Source of the DNA: a phage
Assembly (NCBI GenBank): GCA_012401045.1
Contig: GCA_012401045.1_4704.1
Length of the DNA: 64,000 nt
Reading direction: 5' to 3' (one strand)
The notes beneath the pieces are model-generated. The model did not search any database. It saw only the letters and a program-made list of their open reading frames with translations, and was not told the DNA's origin. Position 1 is the stretch's first letter, and every line of letters starts with the position of its first letter. Positions 1,600-7,347 of the stretch are shown one piece after another. The translations under genes and the position numbers were made by a program.

Positions 1600-2436
1600 T
1601 TAACGTGTTCTCCTATCACGATGCGTATACGACTGAAGACCGATGTCCATATGCGGTAACGTCAGCGTCTGCCAGATCTGTCGTGCGTAACGATCGAGCG
1701 TATGATCATCAGTAACACAATCGACGGGTTCGATGAGGTGAGTCGTATACTGGCTTTTCTCAGAGAAAGGTTCGATGTTAGCTGTATCGCCTAATCCGCT
1801 TTTCACCGTGAAGACAAGACGTGTGACGATCATCGCCTTATGCTGCTGTTCATTATAACGAAGGCTGCGGTATACGGCATAGCTTCCTCCTTTTAGGCTT
1901 CGGGTATAACGAAGGTCGGAGGTCGTCTCGGAAATCTGATACAGCATCCAGTCCAACGTATCACGCCAGTACGCATCATCCACATCAGGAACCGTAATAC
2001 CGTACCGCGTAGGCAGCAATTCTAAAAGCAATTTATAAAGTCCGCGACGTAAGCCATGCTCTTCTGTTTCCGATAAACCGTTTCCAACATAACGTGAAAT
2101 ACGCGTACGTAAATACGTACGGATGAACATATTCGCCATCAGTGTTTTCACTCTGCTACTGGTATCCTCAAAGCGATCAACGCTGAAACTCGTTTCAATC
2201 AGCCGTCCATTAAAATACAATGCAGCAACATACATCGCGTTATTACTATCACGTTCAATGTTTAAACGACCGCAGATATTAGCCGCATCGTTCATGGTAA
2301 ATTCTAATTTATCGTGTTCGATACGATAGATAATATCCTCTTGGGTTGCCAGGCTCGCAATGCGACGGTAGCCCGGAGAAGTACGTTTTACACTCATAAT
2401 TGTCCTCGTTTTCAATTTTAAGATTGCATGCGGCAT
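1600..2436 (-). CDS. hypothetical protein (278 aa)
   Basis: ORF track; ATG preceded by GGAGG (part of a GC hairpin arm). Confidence 0.6.
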   Translation of the reverse strand: MPHAILKLKTRTIMSVKRTSPGYRRIASLATQEDIIYRIEHDKLEFTMNDAANICGRLNIERDSNNAMYVAALYFNGRLIETSFSVDRFEDTSSRVKTLMANMFIRTYLRTRISRYVGNGLSETEEHGLRRGLYKLLLELLPTRYGITVPDVDDAYWRDTLDWMLYQISETTSDLRYTRSLKGGSYAVYRSLRYNEQQHKAMIVTRLVFTVKSGLGDTANIEPFSEKSQYTTHLIEPVDCVTDDHTLDRYARQIWQTLTLPHMDIGLQSYTHRDRRTR

Positions 2437-2438
2437 AA

Positions 2439-2464
2439 ACCCTCCCCGCCTTATGCAGGGAGGG
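2439..2464 (-). terminator. intercistronic CCCTCCC/GGGAGGG hairpin
   Basis: Between CDS 2480..3118 and 1600..2436; 3' arm overlaps the SD of the downstream gene. Confidence 0.35.
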
Positions 2465-2479
2465 TAGCCATTAAATGGA

Positions 2480-3118
2480 TTAACCTAATTTACCACCGGC
2501 GATGTTGGTGAAATCTTCGCCATCAGGAACTTGCAGTAGGATACGTGCCATGTCCCAGTTGGTTAATGTAATTGCTTTATCATCGATACTCAGTTCTGGT
2601 AGGTCGAGTTCATGATCATCAAACTCGTAGGAAATACTCCACGTTTCATCTGTTTTAGGATCGGTTATCAACACACCGTCTGTTACACGCATGTAGTCCG
2701 GGTGCAGTTCATTACTGAATGTGCTGAACGGATCGGTGTAACATTCAGCATATCCCTCGATCTGCTGACGCTGTGCCTTCGTACGTAATTCAGGGCACGC
2801 CATGATCAGTTGTCGAGATATACCGTTTGCGGCACGGAAGTCTTCCACGGTGTTACATGGCATAACCACATCGTCATGGAAGATGTTCTCCGATTGTCTC
2901 AACAGCGTCTTACGGAGTTCAGCATAGTTTATCTGATTGAATGCGTCGAACGTTGCTAACGATTCAGCGTAAAAATGCTTTACGTGTTCGCTTGCGCCGC
3001 CGAGGCTATTCATCAACTTGTGACCGTACTCCATGAAGCTTTTATCGAGACCGGAGGACATTTCTCCGAACCTCAGTGCACGATAACTGTCTCGTCCACC
3101 TGTAAATATTTGCGCCAT
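2480..3118 (-). CDS. hypothetical protein (212 aa)
   Basis: ORF track; ATG with AAGGAGG SD 7 nt upstream; immediately downstream of the split beta' gene. Confidence 0.6.
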   Translation of the reverse strand: MAQIFTGGRDSYRALRFGEMSSGLDKSFMEYGHKLMNSLGGASEHVKHFYAESLATFDAFNQINYAELRKTLLRQSENIFHDDVVMPCNTVEDFRAANGISRQLIMACPELRTKAQRQQIEGYAECYTDPFSTFSNELHPDYMRVTDGVLITDPKTDETWSISYEFDDHELDLPELSIDDKAITLTNWDMARILLQVPDGEDFTNIAGGKLG

Positions 3119-3133
3119 TACAGGCGTCCTCCT

Positions 3134-5359
3134 TTAGCAATGGTTGTTAGTTGCTTCTATTTCATCAAGATACGGTTCTACGTCATCGCCCTCCACGAAT
3201 TCGTTGAACCAACAGTCAATGGTAGAAATAACCGGCGACTGGTGTTCACATTTCTTAGATACCTTAAAAGGTACGTTATTATCCATCATACCGAGTTCGG
3301 GTCGAAAACGCCCGAAATGTTTCGCAGTCCAAATGTCTGGGACGATATGGTTGTTCATCGTAGTGTTCAGCATGAGTCGCTACCTCATACCCGCAGCTTT
3401 ACCTGCAGCTTCCGGTGTTACCGGAATGTCCAGAATATATCTTATCCATATTCCAAATGGAACGTAGGACTTCCGCGCTGGATCTCGCTTGAGACCACGT
3501 ATTCGTTGAACGTTCTCCTGAACGGAGCTTCGCTGCTGATCGAACATTGTCACGTACGGTAGGCATCCCCGAAGGGATTGTCATTGAAGCCGCGTACATC
3601 CGCTACCTTGTTTCTACCTTATCGGTTCCTCTTACGAGGCGTAGCAGCCTTAGCCCTTCCCAGCAATTCACGGAATCCAAGCTCTTCCTTTCGGAAGGCA
3701 GGGCCTATGATTAAGCGTCACCGTCGCTGTTTATCGACTATATCTTCATCCTCGTTGCGAGGAGTCTCCCGTTTTGGTCTGTGTTTAACAGAGCCTACTC
3801 TACTCGACATCGCGTCTTTCGATAGTCTGTGAGCACACATCTTAACAAACATTCGTGGATTCCTAAACAGGTGAATGTTCTTGTTGAGATGCTTCGCTGC
3901 GGATTATTCCCGTCCTACCTCTTTTACCGTACCCAGTTCATTACGCTGGCCCTCATCTATGTCACCACGATGAGTTGGTGTGTAGTCCGATTACAGAAAC
4001 TTCCCGTCAATTAGAGAGCTTTAACTACGTTCCTGTTACCAGAAACCCGACTCCGACGGCATCAATAAATCAACATAAGTTATTGATTTAATTGAAAAAA
4101 CTGAAGTCGGCATTATAACCTTTGAGGATCATCACGCTTAACCCGATGGTGTTATCCTGCGGATCGCGTTTAACCTTGGTGATTTCAAGACATTGGTTAC
4201 TGCTTCGGTCAAGTGATGGGTTTCGAACAAAGCCGCACACAATCCCATCGAACGGTGTATCAGCAATAAGCTCATCGTGCAGCTCGCTCATCATCGGATG
4301 ATAATTACGGACATGTTCCGCAACGAACGCACGCGCTGCTCTCGGTGAATAACCACGATGGAATAACTTGGATTGGATATGTTCTTTATTGGTTAAAGTA
4401 AATGGTGCGTATGGGAAATGCAGATGATAATAACGATGGTTCGCTGTTATCGAACTGATTACGGTACGCGTGGTGAATGGATGTAATGTACCTAATATGT
4501 TTTTACGTGTAATACCTTTCTTCTTACCGATGAACTCATCGAAAATCGCCGCGTGGTATTGCAGTAGCTTCAATTGCACTTTCGCCATCCAGTTTTCTTT
4601 CTTTCTGGCGCTCAAAGGTGTTGTTGGATGATAGATACTGTTCAACGTACCGATAGCATCGATCGCACCTTCCATTTTGCTATCCGCATAACGACCGGTT
4701 GGCGTATTCTCGATAACGAACATCATGGCCGCAGGAAAGCTGATATACTGACTGAAGAACTTATCACGATGGATACGGATGAATTCTCGTAGCGTGTCAA
4801 CTTTCTCCGTGTTCTTCGGTCCACGTAACGTCGGTCCTTTATACAAGATCTCCATGATGCGATCGAAGTTCTGTATAAAACTATTTACACCGCGACGTAT
4901 CCCGAATACATCGAATTGCTGCTCCAGATAGTTCTTGAGTTCGATGGGTCGTTTTACATTTGGACGGTAACTGGCATCAATGAGCCACGTCATCGTTTCA
5001 AAGCTTTTGATATTCAACTCGCTTGCCAGCACGAGATGGACCAACGGGTTAATGAACGCATCGATTCCTTCAGGAACACGCGCCCAAACCGTCGAACGAA
5101 TCTCCTGTTCTGCCGGGTAGGTCACAACCGTTTTACAGTTTGGACACACCGTGCCGAGTAGCTCACCACGATTGTAGAAACCACAACCACACTGTGGTGT
5201 GATATCCAGCGTATCGCTGGAGTAAACACGGGTGATAAAACTGTTTAATTTCTTCTTCTCTTCGACGACTTTTGTATCGTAATCATTCAACAAAATCGGC
5301 GTAAAAGGAAGTTCTGCGAGCTGTCTATCGAAACTCACGATATCGAGCATGATGGCCAT
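3134..5359 (-). CDS. RNA polymerase beta' subunit, N-terminal fragment (non-virion-type); coding sequence interrupted: exon 1 4104..5359, candidate micro-exon 3714..3726, exon 3 3134..3367 (spliced product about 500 aa)
   Basis: Exon 1 has zinc-ribbon CGCG...CPNC, RKNILG...TRTVIS and ends ...GYNADF (RpoC-like); downstream frame has HIVPDIW...GMMDNNVP; AGGAGA SD before ATG 5359. Confidence 0.7.
3368..3713 (-). ncRNA. group I intron B (candidate, ORF-less, about 346 nt)
   Basis: Minus-strand elements AAUUGCUGGGAAG (P), AUCAGCAGCGAAGC (Q), GUUCAGGAGAAC (R-like), AUAAGAUAUAUUCUGGAC (S); GAAA-capped hairpin; boundaries uncertain. Confidence 0.5.
3714..3726 (-). other. candidate 13-nt micro-exon CGACGGUGACGCU supplying (F)-D-G-D-A of the beta' catalytic loop
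   Basis: Lies between omega-G of intron A and the second intron; in frame with exon 1; P10 pairing CGACGG with guide CCGUCG. Confidence 0.45.
3727..4103 (-). ncRNA. group I intron A (ORF-less, about 377 nt)
   Basis: Minus-strand P AAUUGACGGGAAG, Q AAUCCGCAGC, R CACAGACUA, S AAGAUAUAGUC in canonical order; guide GGAGUCGG pairs exon end CCGACUU with U.G at splice site. Confidence 0.75.
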
Positions 5360-5401
5360 GGGGTATCTCCTACAAATGAAAAAGAACGTTAGGACGTATA
5401 A

Positions 5402-5451: not shown

Positions 5452-7347
5452 TTAGAACAGATTGAATGCCCCACCCATGTTGTTAACGCCAACATTCGGA
5501 CGATCGCTACGTGCGTAGATGTTACCGGAGATGTTACCCAGACCACGAGCACGTGCTGCCATGTTACCACGAACAGCGGTACCTGCCAGATGCTGGATGT
5601 TCTCAGGACGGATGGTGAAGCCAGCATCAGCAGCGGCTTCGATCAGCGCCTGCAGTGCTAACGGATCGAAGTCGTAACGCATTGCCCAGCCGGTTTGTTC
5701 CCAGCTACCAGACAGAACACGATCGATGATTTCGTGACGAGCGACAACACGCTGAGACATCGTCATATCGGTACGGTCGAAGCTGTCTTCCCAAGCTTCT
5801 ACGGTATCCGGGTTAGTGATGTTCATCATGTACAGATCGTCCATATCACGAATATCGTGACGGTGACCATCCTGGTGGTTGTAGTGACCCAGCGGGATAC
5901 GGTTACCGGTAGCGTAGACCAGCGGTTGGCCGTATTGATATTTCTTGCTGAAGCAACCCAGGGTAACATCATCGAACGCACGGAAGAGGGCTTTGTAACC
6001 TTCGGAGATTTCACGGACTTCACCTTCAACTTTGCCCGTATAGATCTTCTCAGCCGCCGGGATCATACGCAGCAGCCAGCTGTACTCACCTTCTTCCGGT
6101 ACGTCGATAGAAATCAGCAGAGACGGATACAGTACCTGTTGCAGGAACTTGTAAATCTGCTCGTTGGTTTGAGTAGACAGATCCAGCGGTGCGGTAACTT
6201 CCGGATCCAGTACCATCGCCAGAGCACCCGGGTTATGCGGACCAATACCACGGGCAGCGTTGCTGATTAAAGACTGTGCCCACGCCATACCGCTGTTCAG
6301 CGTAGCGATGGTGCCAATCAGACCCAACACGAAAGTGTTCGGTGTGAACGCATCCAGCTCCAGCGGGTAAGCGCTGGTCATCACGTAACGCGGCTGGTAT
6401 TGTACAGTCGGCGGTACCGGATAACCGTTAACCAGAACAGGGCCTTGGTTGAAGGTCGGGTTCTGCGGGCTGTAAGTCAGGTCAATGTAACCGGTGGTGG
6501 CGACCAGACGCTGTTGACTATCGTAATCGCTCATCGCTTGACGGATGCGGTTAGAGATAGTTACAGTGATGTCAGAACGCACAGGGTTACCAACAATATC
6601 GCTGTCCTGCATACCGCTGGTGTTGTACTGAACGCTGCTGATTGGCTGATCGCTTGCCATCATGCCCAGGTTGAACTGCGGCAGACCCAGTTTATCACCG
6701 AGACGGATTTCGATCGCGGTTTGGATTGCGTTATCTGCAGCAGACAGCAGGGTGGTTGCCAGATGCGCAGATTCAGCGGTGATTTCATTGGTCACCACAG
6801 CCAGACCAGCGATACGAACAGTACCGTTAGACTTACCGCCAATAGCTGAGTACATTGCCGCCATGACTTCGTTGATGAACGTACCGTTCAGGTTATCAAC
6901 CCAGGTACGCGGTACCAGAATGTTACCATGCGGACCTTGTTCTTCACGACGCGGCAGCGGAGCCAGACCAGCAACCAGCGGAAGCACATAACCAAAGAAG
7001 TGGTTATGGTCACCAACTTTTGCACCACTCATAACGACCAGGGTCGGATACGGTACGCTGTACTGGTTCGGGTCAACCGCAACAAAGATGAAGTCGTTTT
7101 TGAACTGGGTATCTTCCAGATATTTCTCCATCAGACGACGGAGATTCAGTACCTGCTCGGAGCCAGTATTACGGCTAATACGACGGCTCAGTGTACGGTT
7201 GATCGTACGCATCGTATGAGTTACTTTAGGCTGGCCAGCAAAATCTGCAGCGGTTTCCAGCGCCTCATCAGCACGTTGTGCGGTGCGGGTTTCAGCTGCA
7301 CGAATTTCTACATTATCGTTACCGTTATTACGTACGTCTAAGCCCAT
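5452..7347 (-). CDS. chmA: putative phage-nucleus shell protein (chimallin-like), 631 aa
   Basis: Size and position immediately upstream of beta' gene as I recall for phiKZ gp54/gp55; strong SD AAGAGGAA; TATATTACCT promoter motif 73 nt upstream; no motif-level confirmation. Confidence 0.45.
   Translation of the reverse strand: MGLDVRNNGNDNVEIRAAETRTAQRADEALETAADFAGQPKVTHTMRTINRTLSRRISRNTGSEQVLNLRRLMEKYLEDTQFKNDFIFVAVDPNQYSVPYPTLVVMSGAKVGDHNHFFGYVLPLVAGLAPLPRREEQGPHGNILVPRTWVDNLNGTFINEVMAAMYSAIGGKSNGTVRIAGLAVVTNEITAESAHLATTLLSAADNAIQTAIEIRLGDKLGLPQFNLGMMASDQPISSVQYNTSGMQDSDIVGNPVRSDITVTISNRIRQAMSDYDSQQRLVATTGYIDLTYSPQNPTFNQGPVLVNGYPVPPTVQYQPRYVMTSAYPLELDAFTPNTFVLGLIGTIATLNSGMAWAQSLISNAARGIGPHNPGALAMVLDPEVTAPLDLSTQTNEQIYKFLQQVLYPSLLISIDVPEEGEYSWLLRMIPAAEKIYTGKVEGEVREISEGYKALFRAFDDVTLGCFSKKYQYGQPLVYATGNRIPLGHYNHQDGHRHDIRDMDDLYMMNITNPDTVEAWEDSFDRTDMTMSQRVVARHEIIDRVLSGSWEQTGWAMRYDFDPLALQALIEAAADAGFTIRPENIQHLAGTAVRGNMAARARGLGNISGNIYARSDRPNVGVNNMGGAFNLF

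Follow-up and report, generated by a model that had tools for sequence, protein, structure and literature searches.

How can a phage make an RNA polymerase subunit from a gene whose catalytic codons are cut off on both sides by intervening sequence? The question is raised by positions 3,134 to 5,359 of a 64,000-nt stretch of phage DNA (contig GCA_012401045.1_4704.1 of GenBank assembly GCA_012401045.1; this whole stretch is called the window here), where a homologue of phiKZ gp55, the beta'-N subunit of the non-virion RNA polymerase (nvRNAP), is interrupted. The answer, which we consider very probable from the anatomy of the sequence, is that the Asp-Gly-Asp (DGD) of the active site would be carried by an exon of only 13 nt, placed between two group I introns, both self-splicing, that have no open reading frame (ORF) of their own. 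The predicted arrangement, in the order of transcription, is as follows.

4104..5359, minus strand: exon 1, ending ...AAT GCC GAC TT; 100% identical to Goslar gp247
3727..4103, minus strand: intron A, group I, 377 nt, without an endonuclease gene
3714..3726, minus strand: micro-exon, 13 nt, CGACGGTGACGCT
3359..3713, minus strand: intron B, group I, 355 nt, without an endonuclease gene
3134..3358, minus strand: exon 3, ATG AAC AAC CAT ... TGC TAA, 74 codons and a stop, colinear with homologues

The interrupted gene and its product

The source region is that of a Goslar-like jumbo phage of Escherichia coli: positions 2400-5400 of the window are 98.3% identical to Escherichia phage vB_EcoM_Goslar, and by this likeness the window's phage is classed among the Goslar-like, nucleus-forming jumbo phages. 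The interrupted gene lies on the minus strand directly downstream of the gene for chimallin, the protein of the nuclear shell (5452..7347, minus strand), a placement shared with phiKZ gp55, and homology identifies it as the gene for nvRNAP beta'-N. Read as a plain ORF from its start at 5359, exon 1 continues through ...ILKGYNADF into intron A, where it ends in SFFN and a stop (423 amino acids, ...NADFSFFN). Both introns lie within the codons for NADFDGD, a metal-binding motif of universal conservation. The aspartates of DFDGD are the catalytic metal ligands in all multisubunit RNA polymerases. It is the micro-exon that supplies the third base of the last Phe codon and the Asp-Gly-Asp-Ala of the NADFDGD catalytic motif, the GAC TT at the end of exon 1 (4104) being completed to TTC GAC GGT GAC GCT, or F-D-G-D-A.

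An earlier note on this DNA, made from its letters alone, had claimed that splicing of intron A restores N-A-D-F-D-G-D-A in frame and that the next in-frame codon after the 13 bases is TAA; both statements are borne out by the bases themselves (3726..3714 following the end of exon 1). Its placing of the start of exon 3 at about 3367 needs correction to 3358, with the 3' junction of intron B at 3358/3359, because the ligated protein is then colinear with its homologues. From 3358, exon 3 opens with ATGAACAACCAT, and this start satisfies the rule for group I introns, with U as the last base of the exon before intron B and G as the last base of the intron.

Joined together, exon 1, micro-exon and exon 3 encode 497 amino acids, reading NADFDGDAMNNH. 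This product aligns with PDB 7OGP chain A (phiKZ gp55, nvRNAP beta'-N) at E = 1e-74, and without a gap at either junction (lkgyNADFDGDaMNnhivPDiw against lkapNADFDGDqLNltlmPDvy); it also matches the Pfam family RNA_pol_Rpb1_2 across both junctions (residues 371-428; 36.9 bits, cut-off 25.3). It is likewise colinear, without a gap, with the intron-free genes of Eowyn (NADFDGDALGGLLILD), Xoo-sp14, Simmy50 and PhiPA3, in which NADFDGD-A/E/Q-L-x-x-x-L-x-x-D corresponds to the NADFDGD-A-M-N-N-H-I-V-P-D proposed here. A homologue is present in 307 phage records, and most of the query is found in one place in 260 of these.

Might the DGD codons occur where they do by accident? The pattern CGAYGGNGAYGC is found once in the window, counting both strands, and that is at the micro-exon; chance alone predicts about 0.27 occurrences in 128,000 positions. 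For the 745 bases that separate exon 1 from exon 3 the expectation is about 0.002, so the match is not due to chance, a point on which the earlier note had been right.

Natural alleles and selection on the micro-exon

For comparison, 22 further Goslar-like loci were gathered (IMG/VR, metagenome contigs, neighbouring-gene look-up), in all of which the exon 1 protein is 99-100% identical to that of the window. With the window this makes 23 loci, representing 20 distinct sequences of the region and eight intron configurations (listed in a later section; L numbers are our handles for the sequences compared). Introns occupy the insertion site in some of these relatives, and others are intron-free at A and B. 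Downstream of a single intron at a neighbouring site, D, the alleles L012-14 read GAC TTT GAC GGY GAC GCR ATG AAC AAC CAT without interruption, and L018, which has an intron at site C only, reads GAT TTC GAC GGG GAC GCG ATG AAC, again contiguously. These alleles match exactly the sequence expected from splicing out A and B. With the colinearity of the ligated protein, they uphold the claim that DGD is carried by a 13-nt exon: the micro-exon is real, and its sequence anatomy is confirmed. None of the 23 genomic loci examined was fully intron-free.

The micro-exon itself varies among the 20 distinct alleles only at positions 1, 7, 10 and 13, all of them third codon positions. If sites were unconstrained, the chance that four variable sites would all fall on the five third positions among the 13 bases would be 5/715. 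Variation so confined means that selection acts on the micro-exon as coding sequence.

In this sample intron A was never seen without intron B, and a B-type intron occurs without A in L010, L025, L029 and L022.

Intron A

The earlier note had also held that two group I introns flank the 13 bases, and this is upheld by two matches to RF00028 (the Rfam group I intron family), by the guide pairings P1 and P10 and by a conserved fold. The match for intron A extends from 3727 to 4094 (49.3 bits, E = 3e-11, Rfam in E-value mode), covers the full length of the model (1-253) and ends exactly at the G that precedes the micro-exon (3727). The curated gathering score of RF00028 is 50 bits, which leaves intron A 0.7 bit short, and an Rfam scan of the whole window at the gathering threshold gave no match. 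Intron A starts CAGUUU and ends ...AAACAG, with its terminal G at 3727. Its guide is as follows.

4047..4059, minus strand: internal guide of intron A, 5'-CCGUCG GAGUCGG-3'

The 3' part of this guide, GAGUCGG, is complementary to CCGACUU, with which exon 1 ends, forming a P1 of 7 bp with a U.G pair at the cleavage site. The CCGUCG immediately 5' of it is fully complementary to bases 1-6 of the micro-exon, CGACGG, and would form P10, so that the two pairings stand in the textbook order. P1 measures 7 bp and P10 6 bp in every allele. In those that also bear intron C, exon 1 ends in CAGAUUU (synonymous changes) and the guide is GGAUCUG, which amounts to two compensatory changes in P1 and one change from U-A to U.G. 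The P1 helix was predicted unaided by RNAalifold, and across seven alleles the only variation in P10 is to wobble pairs (C to U opposite G).

In the window, and in the alleles with introns at C, A and B, intron A has neither an endonuclease gene nor a P9 hairpin and ends ...AUAGUCGAUAAACAG. The ORFs inside the window's introns A and B are at most 66 amino acids long and none has a Pfam match, so neither intron has a homing endonuclease ORF. In Goslar the terminal hairpin of intron A (L001:3170-4237, compared with 3727-3740 in the window) contains a gene for a 336-amino-acid HNH_3/NUMOD1 endonuclease and is closed by a 14-bp inverted repeat, TTACGTGCACCGAC...GTCGGTGCACGTAA. Intron A of L023 (4350-5440) has a different HNH_3 gene, of 320 amino acids, in the same place.

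Two other observations concern this intron. By RNAalifold, GUCG-AUAAACAG-CGAC can fold into a small hairpin across its 3' splice site (3720-3735, minus strand), an alternative structure that would compete with P7 and P10. In addition, intron A and an intron of the phage pEa_SNUABM_54 both contain GCCGUCG as a guide; we do not claim homology between them. Pairwise global identities among the intron types, 69-87% throughout, result from cheap gaps and are uninformative.

Intron B and its family

For intron B, the RF00028 match (3413..3723; E-value mode) scores only 20.9 bits (E = 0.0099), below the gathering score. This match, likewise over the full length of the model, begins inside the micro-exon because P1 of the model takes in the last bases of the 5' exon. 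Other copies of the intron B family score 18-28 bits, all below 50. Because of this, the assignment of intron B to group I rests on structural features, the chief of which are listed here.

3703..3710, minus strand: internal guide region of intron B, 5'-UCAUAGGC-3'
3433..3504, minus strand: the P7 strands of intron B, GAAUA (3504..3500) and UAUUC (3437..3433)

Intron B starts UAAUCAUAGGCCC and ends ...CUGAACACUACG (...ACUACG), with its terminal G at 3359. Its family in these phages comprises B itself, a variant B' (91% identical) and D, a paralogue at another site. Twelve copies of B, B' and D were aligned with MAFFT (alignment A1), and the structure tested comprised P1, P2, P3-P9.2 and the P3/P7 pseudoknot. 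In 19 helices with 93 pairs, 99.6% of the cells are paired and 35 of the pairs are compensatory. None of 500 shuffles matched this, and sliding the 3' partners by 1-3 columns left 1-4 compensatory pairs. P8 and the 3' strand of P3 lie between the two P7 strands, giving the group I pseudoknot, and P7, the guanosine-binding helix, exists in three Watson-Crick variants (GAAUA with UAUUC, GAUCA with UGAUC and GAGUA with UACUC). This covariation supports for the intron B family a group I fold with a conserved P3-P8 core and P3/P7 pseudoknot.

At the 5' splice site of intron B, P1 pairs GCU/UA (the slash marks the splice site) with UAGGC: bases 11-13 of the micro-exon and the first two bases of the intron take part, and U.G lies at the splice site. 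An independent RNAalifold prediction gave the same helix, in which two pairs show compensatory changes. For P10, the weakest element and our own reading of the sequence, UCAU of the guide and the AUGA that opens exon 3 can be paired by bulging out one A. The Ala codon before site B is GCT in all seven copies of intron B in A1, and it is GCA or GCG in alleles without an intron at site B; GCT in the B-bearing alleles fits a need for U at the splice site.

Side observations on this family are as follows. RNAalifold proposed a 2-bp contact between the GG of the micro-exon (3721-3722) and the tail of intron B (3362-3363; columns 5-6 and 374-375 of A1), with apparent covariation between B and D copies, which may well be chance. 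B' (L010:5602-5625; also L025 and L029) follows GAT GCC, so that C-G takes the place of the near-universal U.G at its 5' splice site; the variant is found in three distinct contigs and is therefore no assembly error, and we count it among the limits of our model. An alternative 5' splice site for B', with an exon ending in GAU, was considered and rejected: it has no guide pairing, and with it the protein would lose or gain a residue just behind DGD. Intron D (L010, L012-L014: 5252-5601) is a paralogue of B by BLAST, which aligns about 190 bases from its 5' part at 78% identity. Its insertion point, after AAY GCT, lies 18 bases upstream of site B and resembles the GAY GCT there, and the same GGC guide reads both. 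Intron D looks like a B-type intron that has transposed to a look-alike site.

How the two introns would be removed

Each intron is envisaged as a ribozyme that would remove itself from the pre-mRNA by two transesterifications. The guide of intron A would pair with the end of exon 1 (P1) and then with bases 1-6 of the micro-exon (P10), the 3' end of the intron being the G at 3727. That of intron B would pair with GCU of the micro-exon (P1) and probably with AUGA of exon 3 (P10), the 3' end being the G at 3359. On the micro-exon, intron A would use bases 1-6 and intron B bases 11-13, with no base in common, so the introns could act independently and in either order. The fully spliced mRNA would read ...AATGCCGACTT-CGACGGTGACGCT-ATGAACAACCAT, with the predicted junction ...GCCGACTT/CGACGGTGACGCT/ATGAACAACC, and encodes 497 amino acids including ...GYNADFDGDAMNNH...; a tryptic peptide of the ligated product would be GYNADFDGDAMNNHIVPDIWTAK.

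The incomplete products all run into a stop: the unspliced message ends ...NADFSFFN, that with A alone spliced ends ...DGDA, and that lacking the micro-exon is frameshifted and ends ...NADL. Only the fully spliced mRNA, then, is predicted to encode an active subunit.

Has such an mRNA left any trace in sequence collections? The exact 497-amino-acid product, in its Goslar and window versions (P0002 and P0003), was found in a collection of 15 billion proteins; Logan assemblies are the sole source, with a single short contig for each version (8.8 kb and 1.9 kb). Interrupted forms, of 423, 434, 449 amino acids and other lengths, are found on up to 118 contigs each, the longest of about 240 kb. The Logan contigs may be assembled spliced transcripts. 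A BLAST comparison of the ligated junction with complete E. coli genomes and plasmids gave no match.

Several points weigh against the proposed splicing. Both introns in the window score below the gathering score of RF00028 (49.3 and 20.9 bits), and intron A has no P9 hairpin. Only three bases of the exon take part in the P1 of intron B, whose P10 can be drawn only with one base bulged out. The two Logan contigs could also represent an intron-free DNA allele. Splicing in vivo, and the order in which the two introns depart, are things that we infer.

Alternative explanations

The alternative that survives best, though we regard it as improbable, is that the micro-exon is sometimes skipped for regulatory purposes, the shortened and inactive subunit that results (...NADL) serving to adjust the level of the polymerase. 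Tandem group I introns known to skip an exon include those of Twort orf142, Coxiella 23S rRNA and engineered Tetrahymena pairs, and skipping is also known from a polymerase gene of the Bastillevirinae; at the present locus it would cause a frameshift to a stop. However, A and B are dissimilar and therefore provide no single composite ribozyme, and we saw no sign of selection for skipping. The P10 guide of A, CCGUCG, has no complementarity to the AUGAAC of exon 3, and the P1 guide of B is unmatched to the end of exon 1; because of these two mismatches, skipping should be rare.

It is somewhat less probable still that the junctions of intron B have been wrongly placed, for instance that the micro-exon has only 10 nt (CGACGGTGAC) and exon 3 starts from ACG ATG, or that some other in-frame G upstream of 3358 ends the intron. 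The shortness of the P1 of intron B (three exon bases), its imperfect P10 and the presence of several in-frame positions after G between 3390 and 3358 leave room for such a shift. But with an exon of 10 nt the last exon base would be C and the last intron base U, breaking the U.G and terminal-G rules, and a longer 3' exon would insert residues between DGDA and MNNH that are present in no homologue. Alleles free of introns at these sites read GCN ATG AAC directly, and GCT is kept in all B-bearing alleles, with GCA or GCG where site B is empty.

Equally hard to sustain is the idea of a defective gene, in which one or both introns are remnants that have lost the ability to splice and the polymerase manages without this DGD or draws on another copy. 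In its favour are the lack of an endonuclease gene in either intron, the lack of P9 in A and the two low Rfam scores. Against it stand the role of the DFDGD aspartates as metal ligands and the restriction of changes in the micro-exon to synonymous ones. Goslar, moreover, has the same A+B arrangement and is a cultured, viable phage. Compensatory changes also keep P1 of A and the fold of B intact, which argues that selection for splicing is ongoing.

Finally, the near-contiguity of the two ribozyme matches might suggest that all 745 nt of the insert form a single composite element (a twintron, or an intron with an internal domain) in which DGD is a coincidence, but this has next to no probability and is effectively refuted by the alleles without A and B, in which the 13 bases are exonic, besides conflicting with the occurrence of the B-type intron without A (L010, L025, L029, L022), the expectation of about 0.002 for the motif in the insert and the pairing of the guide of A with the first six of the 13 bases as its 3' exon.

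An intron hotspot in the NADFDGD codons

Splicing around a 13-base exon, as we propose it for the window, belongs to a wider pattern of intron insertion at this active site. Among Goslar-like phages there are five insertion sites within about 31 bases (codons K-G-Y-N-A-D-F-D-G-D-A), of which up to three are occupied at once, an unusually dense hotspot. The slash marks the point of insertion.

Site C: GGG T/AT
Site D: GCT/GAC
Site E: GAT/TTT
Site A: TT/C
Site B: GCT/ATG

The eight configurations are distributed as follows over the 20 distinct sequences (HEG, homing endonuclease gene).

C+A+B: 8 distinct sequences
D only: 3 distinct sequences
D+B': 3 distinct sequences
A+B without endonuclease: 2 distinct sequences
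A(HEG1)+B (Goslar): 1 distinct sequence
A(HEG2)+B (L023): 1 distinct sequence
C(HEG) only: 1 distinct sequence
C(HEG)+E+B (L022): 1 distinct sequence

Intron C (L011:5243-5621; also L015, L016, L017, L019, L021, L026, L027 and L030) is a group I intron of 365 nt that matches RF00028 at 30.3 bits. Genomes with C, A and B have two consecutive micro-exons of 13 bases, ATAATGCAGATTT between C and A and then CGACGGKGAYGCT. Bases 7-13 of the first form the P1 of intron A, and bases 2-6 can, on our own reading, pair with the guide of C as its P10, so that 12 of the 13 bases are engaged. L022 (3650-5800) has micro-exons of 11 nt (ATAACGCAGAT) and 15 nt (TTTGATGGTGACGCT); its intron E, at GAT/TTT, matches RF00028 at 55.3 bits, above the threshold, and has the P1 GCAGAU with GUCUGC. 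In the genomes with D and B' an 18-base exon lies between the introns. These micro-exons of 11, 13, 13, 15 and 18 bases are almost wholly used by the guide pairings of the flanking ribozymes. Sites that are 5 bases apart (D and A) or 8 apart (C and D) are never occupied together in the 20 sequences, which in so small a sample is only a hint.

Other chimalliviruses add two sites, AAT/GCT (phiKZ and KpGz_1) and GGT/GAC (pEa_SNUABM_54, in which the guide GCCGUC pairs with GACGGU), making seven in total. The intron in phiKZ gp55 (L020:13169-14540) is at the same site as that of KpGz_1, and its 3' end, GGGTATCAATTAACGACTGATACTGAACAATACG, resembles those of B, C and D of the Goslar group. All the endonucleases seen here are I-HmuI-like HNH proteins.

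How might introns without endonucleases, such as A and B of the window, have spread? Presumably they would have done so by means of the endonucleases of neighbouring introns in other genomes; lying 13 bases apart, A and B would be co-converted together. In PhiPA3 the HNH-type intron endonuclease gp210 acts in competition between co-infecting phages (Birkholz et al., 2024). It is possible, though we put it forward tentatively and think it somewhat likelier to be wrong than right, that the whole hotspot is a battleground of competing introns, in which each insertion would split the HNH sites of its neighbours and so confer immunity, ORF-less introns 11-18 bases away would hitch-hike by co-conversion, the footprints of P10 and P1 would set a minimum exon of about 11 bases, and the endonucleases may be weapons between co-infecting phages, as gp210 is.

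Consequences for annotation

In the public Goslar records (NC_048170 and MK327938) the gene is represented by three separate proteins and one annotated intron (intron A, as Intron_gpI). Exon 1 (L001:1542-2813) is given as a 423-amino-acid 'RNA polymerase beta subunit' that ends NADFSFFN, without the catalytic DGD, and exon 3 (L001:4591-4830) as a separate hypothetical protein of 79 amino acids, with a start inside intron B. The current annotation of this essential gene is very probably wrong, and the true subunit would be a 497-amino-acid protein encoded by three exons. This matters since Goslar is the E. coli model for the biology of the phage nucleus, and a correct gene model is needed for expressing, knocking down or modelling the polymerase.

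The same phages occur widely under other names. Proteins of Goslar-like phages stand in the databases under Salmonella enterica, E. coli, Shigella and Enterobacter, labelled hypothetical, and the contigs that encode them measure about 240 kb; the gene downstream, for a protein of 212 amino acids, is found in 420 index blocks; Goslar-like phages seem to be very common in isolate and gut sequencing data.

Comparison with known systems

The nearest parallel is in phiKZ itself (gp55, gp56 and gp56.1), which has a group I intron in the same gene and the same motif, at AAT/GCT (N/ADFDGD). The chain whose structure was solved is a fusion of PHIKZ055 and PHIKZ056.1, and the literature mentions introns in phiKZ RNA polymerase genes, among them gp55 and gp180. 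However, phiKZ has one intron, with the HNH endonuclease gp56, and no micro-exon, and its insertion site lies 18 bases upstream of site B and 10 upstream of site A. In PhiPA3 a group I intron is likewise placed at conserved aspartate codons of a jumbo-phage RNA polymerase (Birkholz et al., 2024), but the polymerase is the virion enzyme and there is a single intron with its endonuclease, whereas A and B of the window have none.

Short exons between group I introns are known from other settings. The orf142 gene of Staphylococcus phage Twort also encodes a phage protein and has three group I introns with an exon of 23 nt between introns 2 and 3, compared with 13 nt here and 11 nt in L022. However, introns 2 and 3 of Twort are near-identical IA2 copies that skip the exon, and the product is a tail tube protein, in contrast to the enzyme active site concerned here. 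A near-identical tandem pair of the Twort type was considered for the window and rejected, as MAFFT sets A apart from B, B' and D and the guides are unrelated; a twintron, with no exon between the ribozymes, was rejected too, the 13 bases being coding in alleles without A and B. The 23S rRNA gene of Coxiella burnetii has two dissimilar group I introns around a short exon, but this is an rRNA gene in a bacterial host and the exon has 34 nt. Mini-exons of fewer than about four codons between group I or group II introns occur regularly in mitochondrial genes (e.g. fungal cox1), where gene finders miss them; these differ in being organellar and often maturase-dependent, with no phage or bacterial setting.

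The literature on Goslar introns, jumbo-phage RNA polymerase introns and phage group I micro-exons yielded reports of single introns only, and for Goslar and its relatives we found none on a second intron, a micro-exon or intron polymorphism. The suggestion in the earlier note that the arrangement might be undescribed therefore stands, as far as this literature goes, for the tandem pair and micro-exon in Goslar-type phages, and falls for the general design, two group I introns around a short exon being already known.

Nearly every base of the micro-exon is under three constraints, from an invariant active site, from pairing with the upstream ribozyme and from pairing with the downstream one, and it offers a natural system in which to ask how short an exon two ribozymes can share. 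With natural alleles that have or lack each intron and endonuclease, invasion, co-conversion and competition become testable in a phage of E. coli. The mechanism and the class of element are already known; what is new is an exon shorter than the earlier phage and bacterial ones that we found, carrying the catalytic triad of an essential polymerase, in a polymorphic array of up to three ribozymes. To our knowledge its 13 bases (11 in a relative) are fewer than in the documented phage and bacterial cases, with their exons of 23 and 34 bases.

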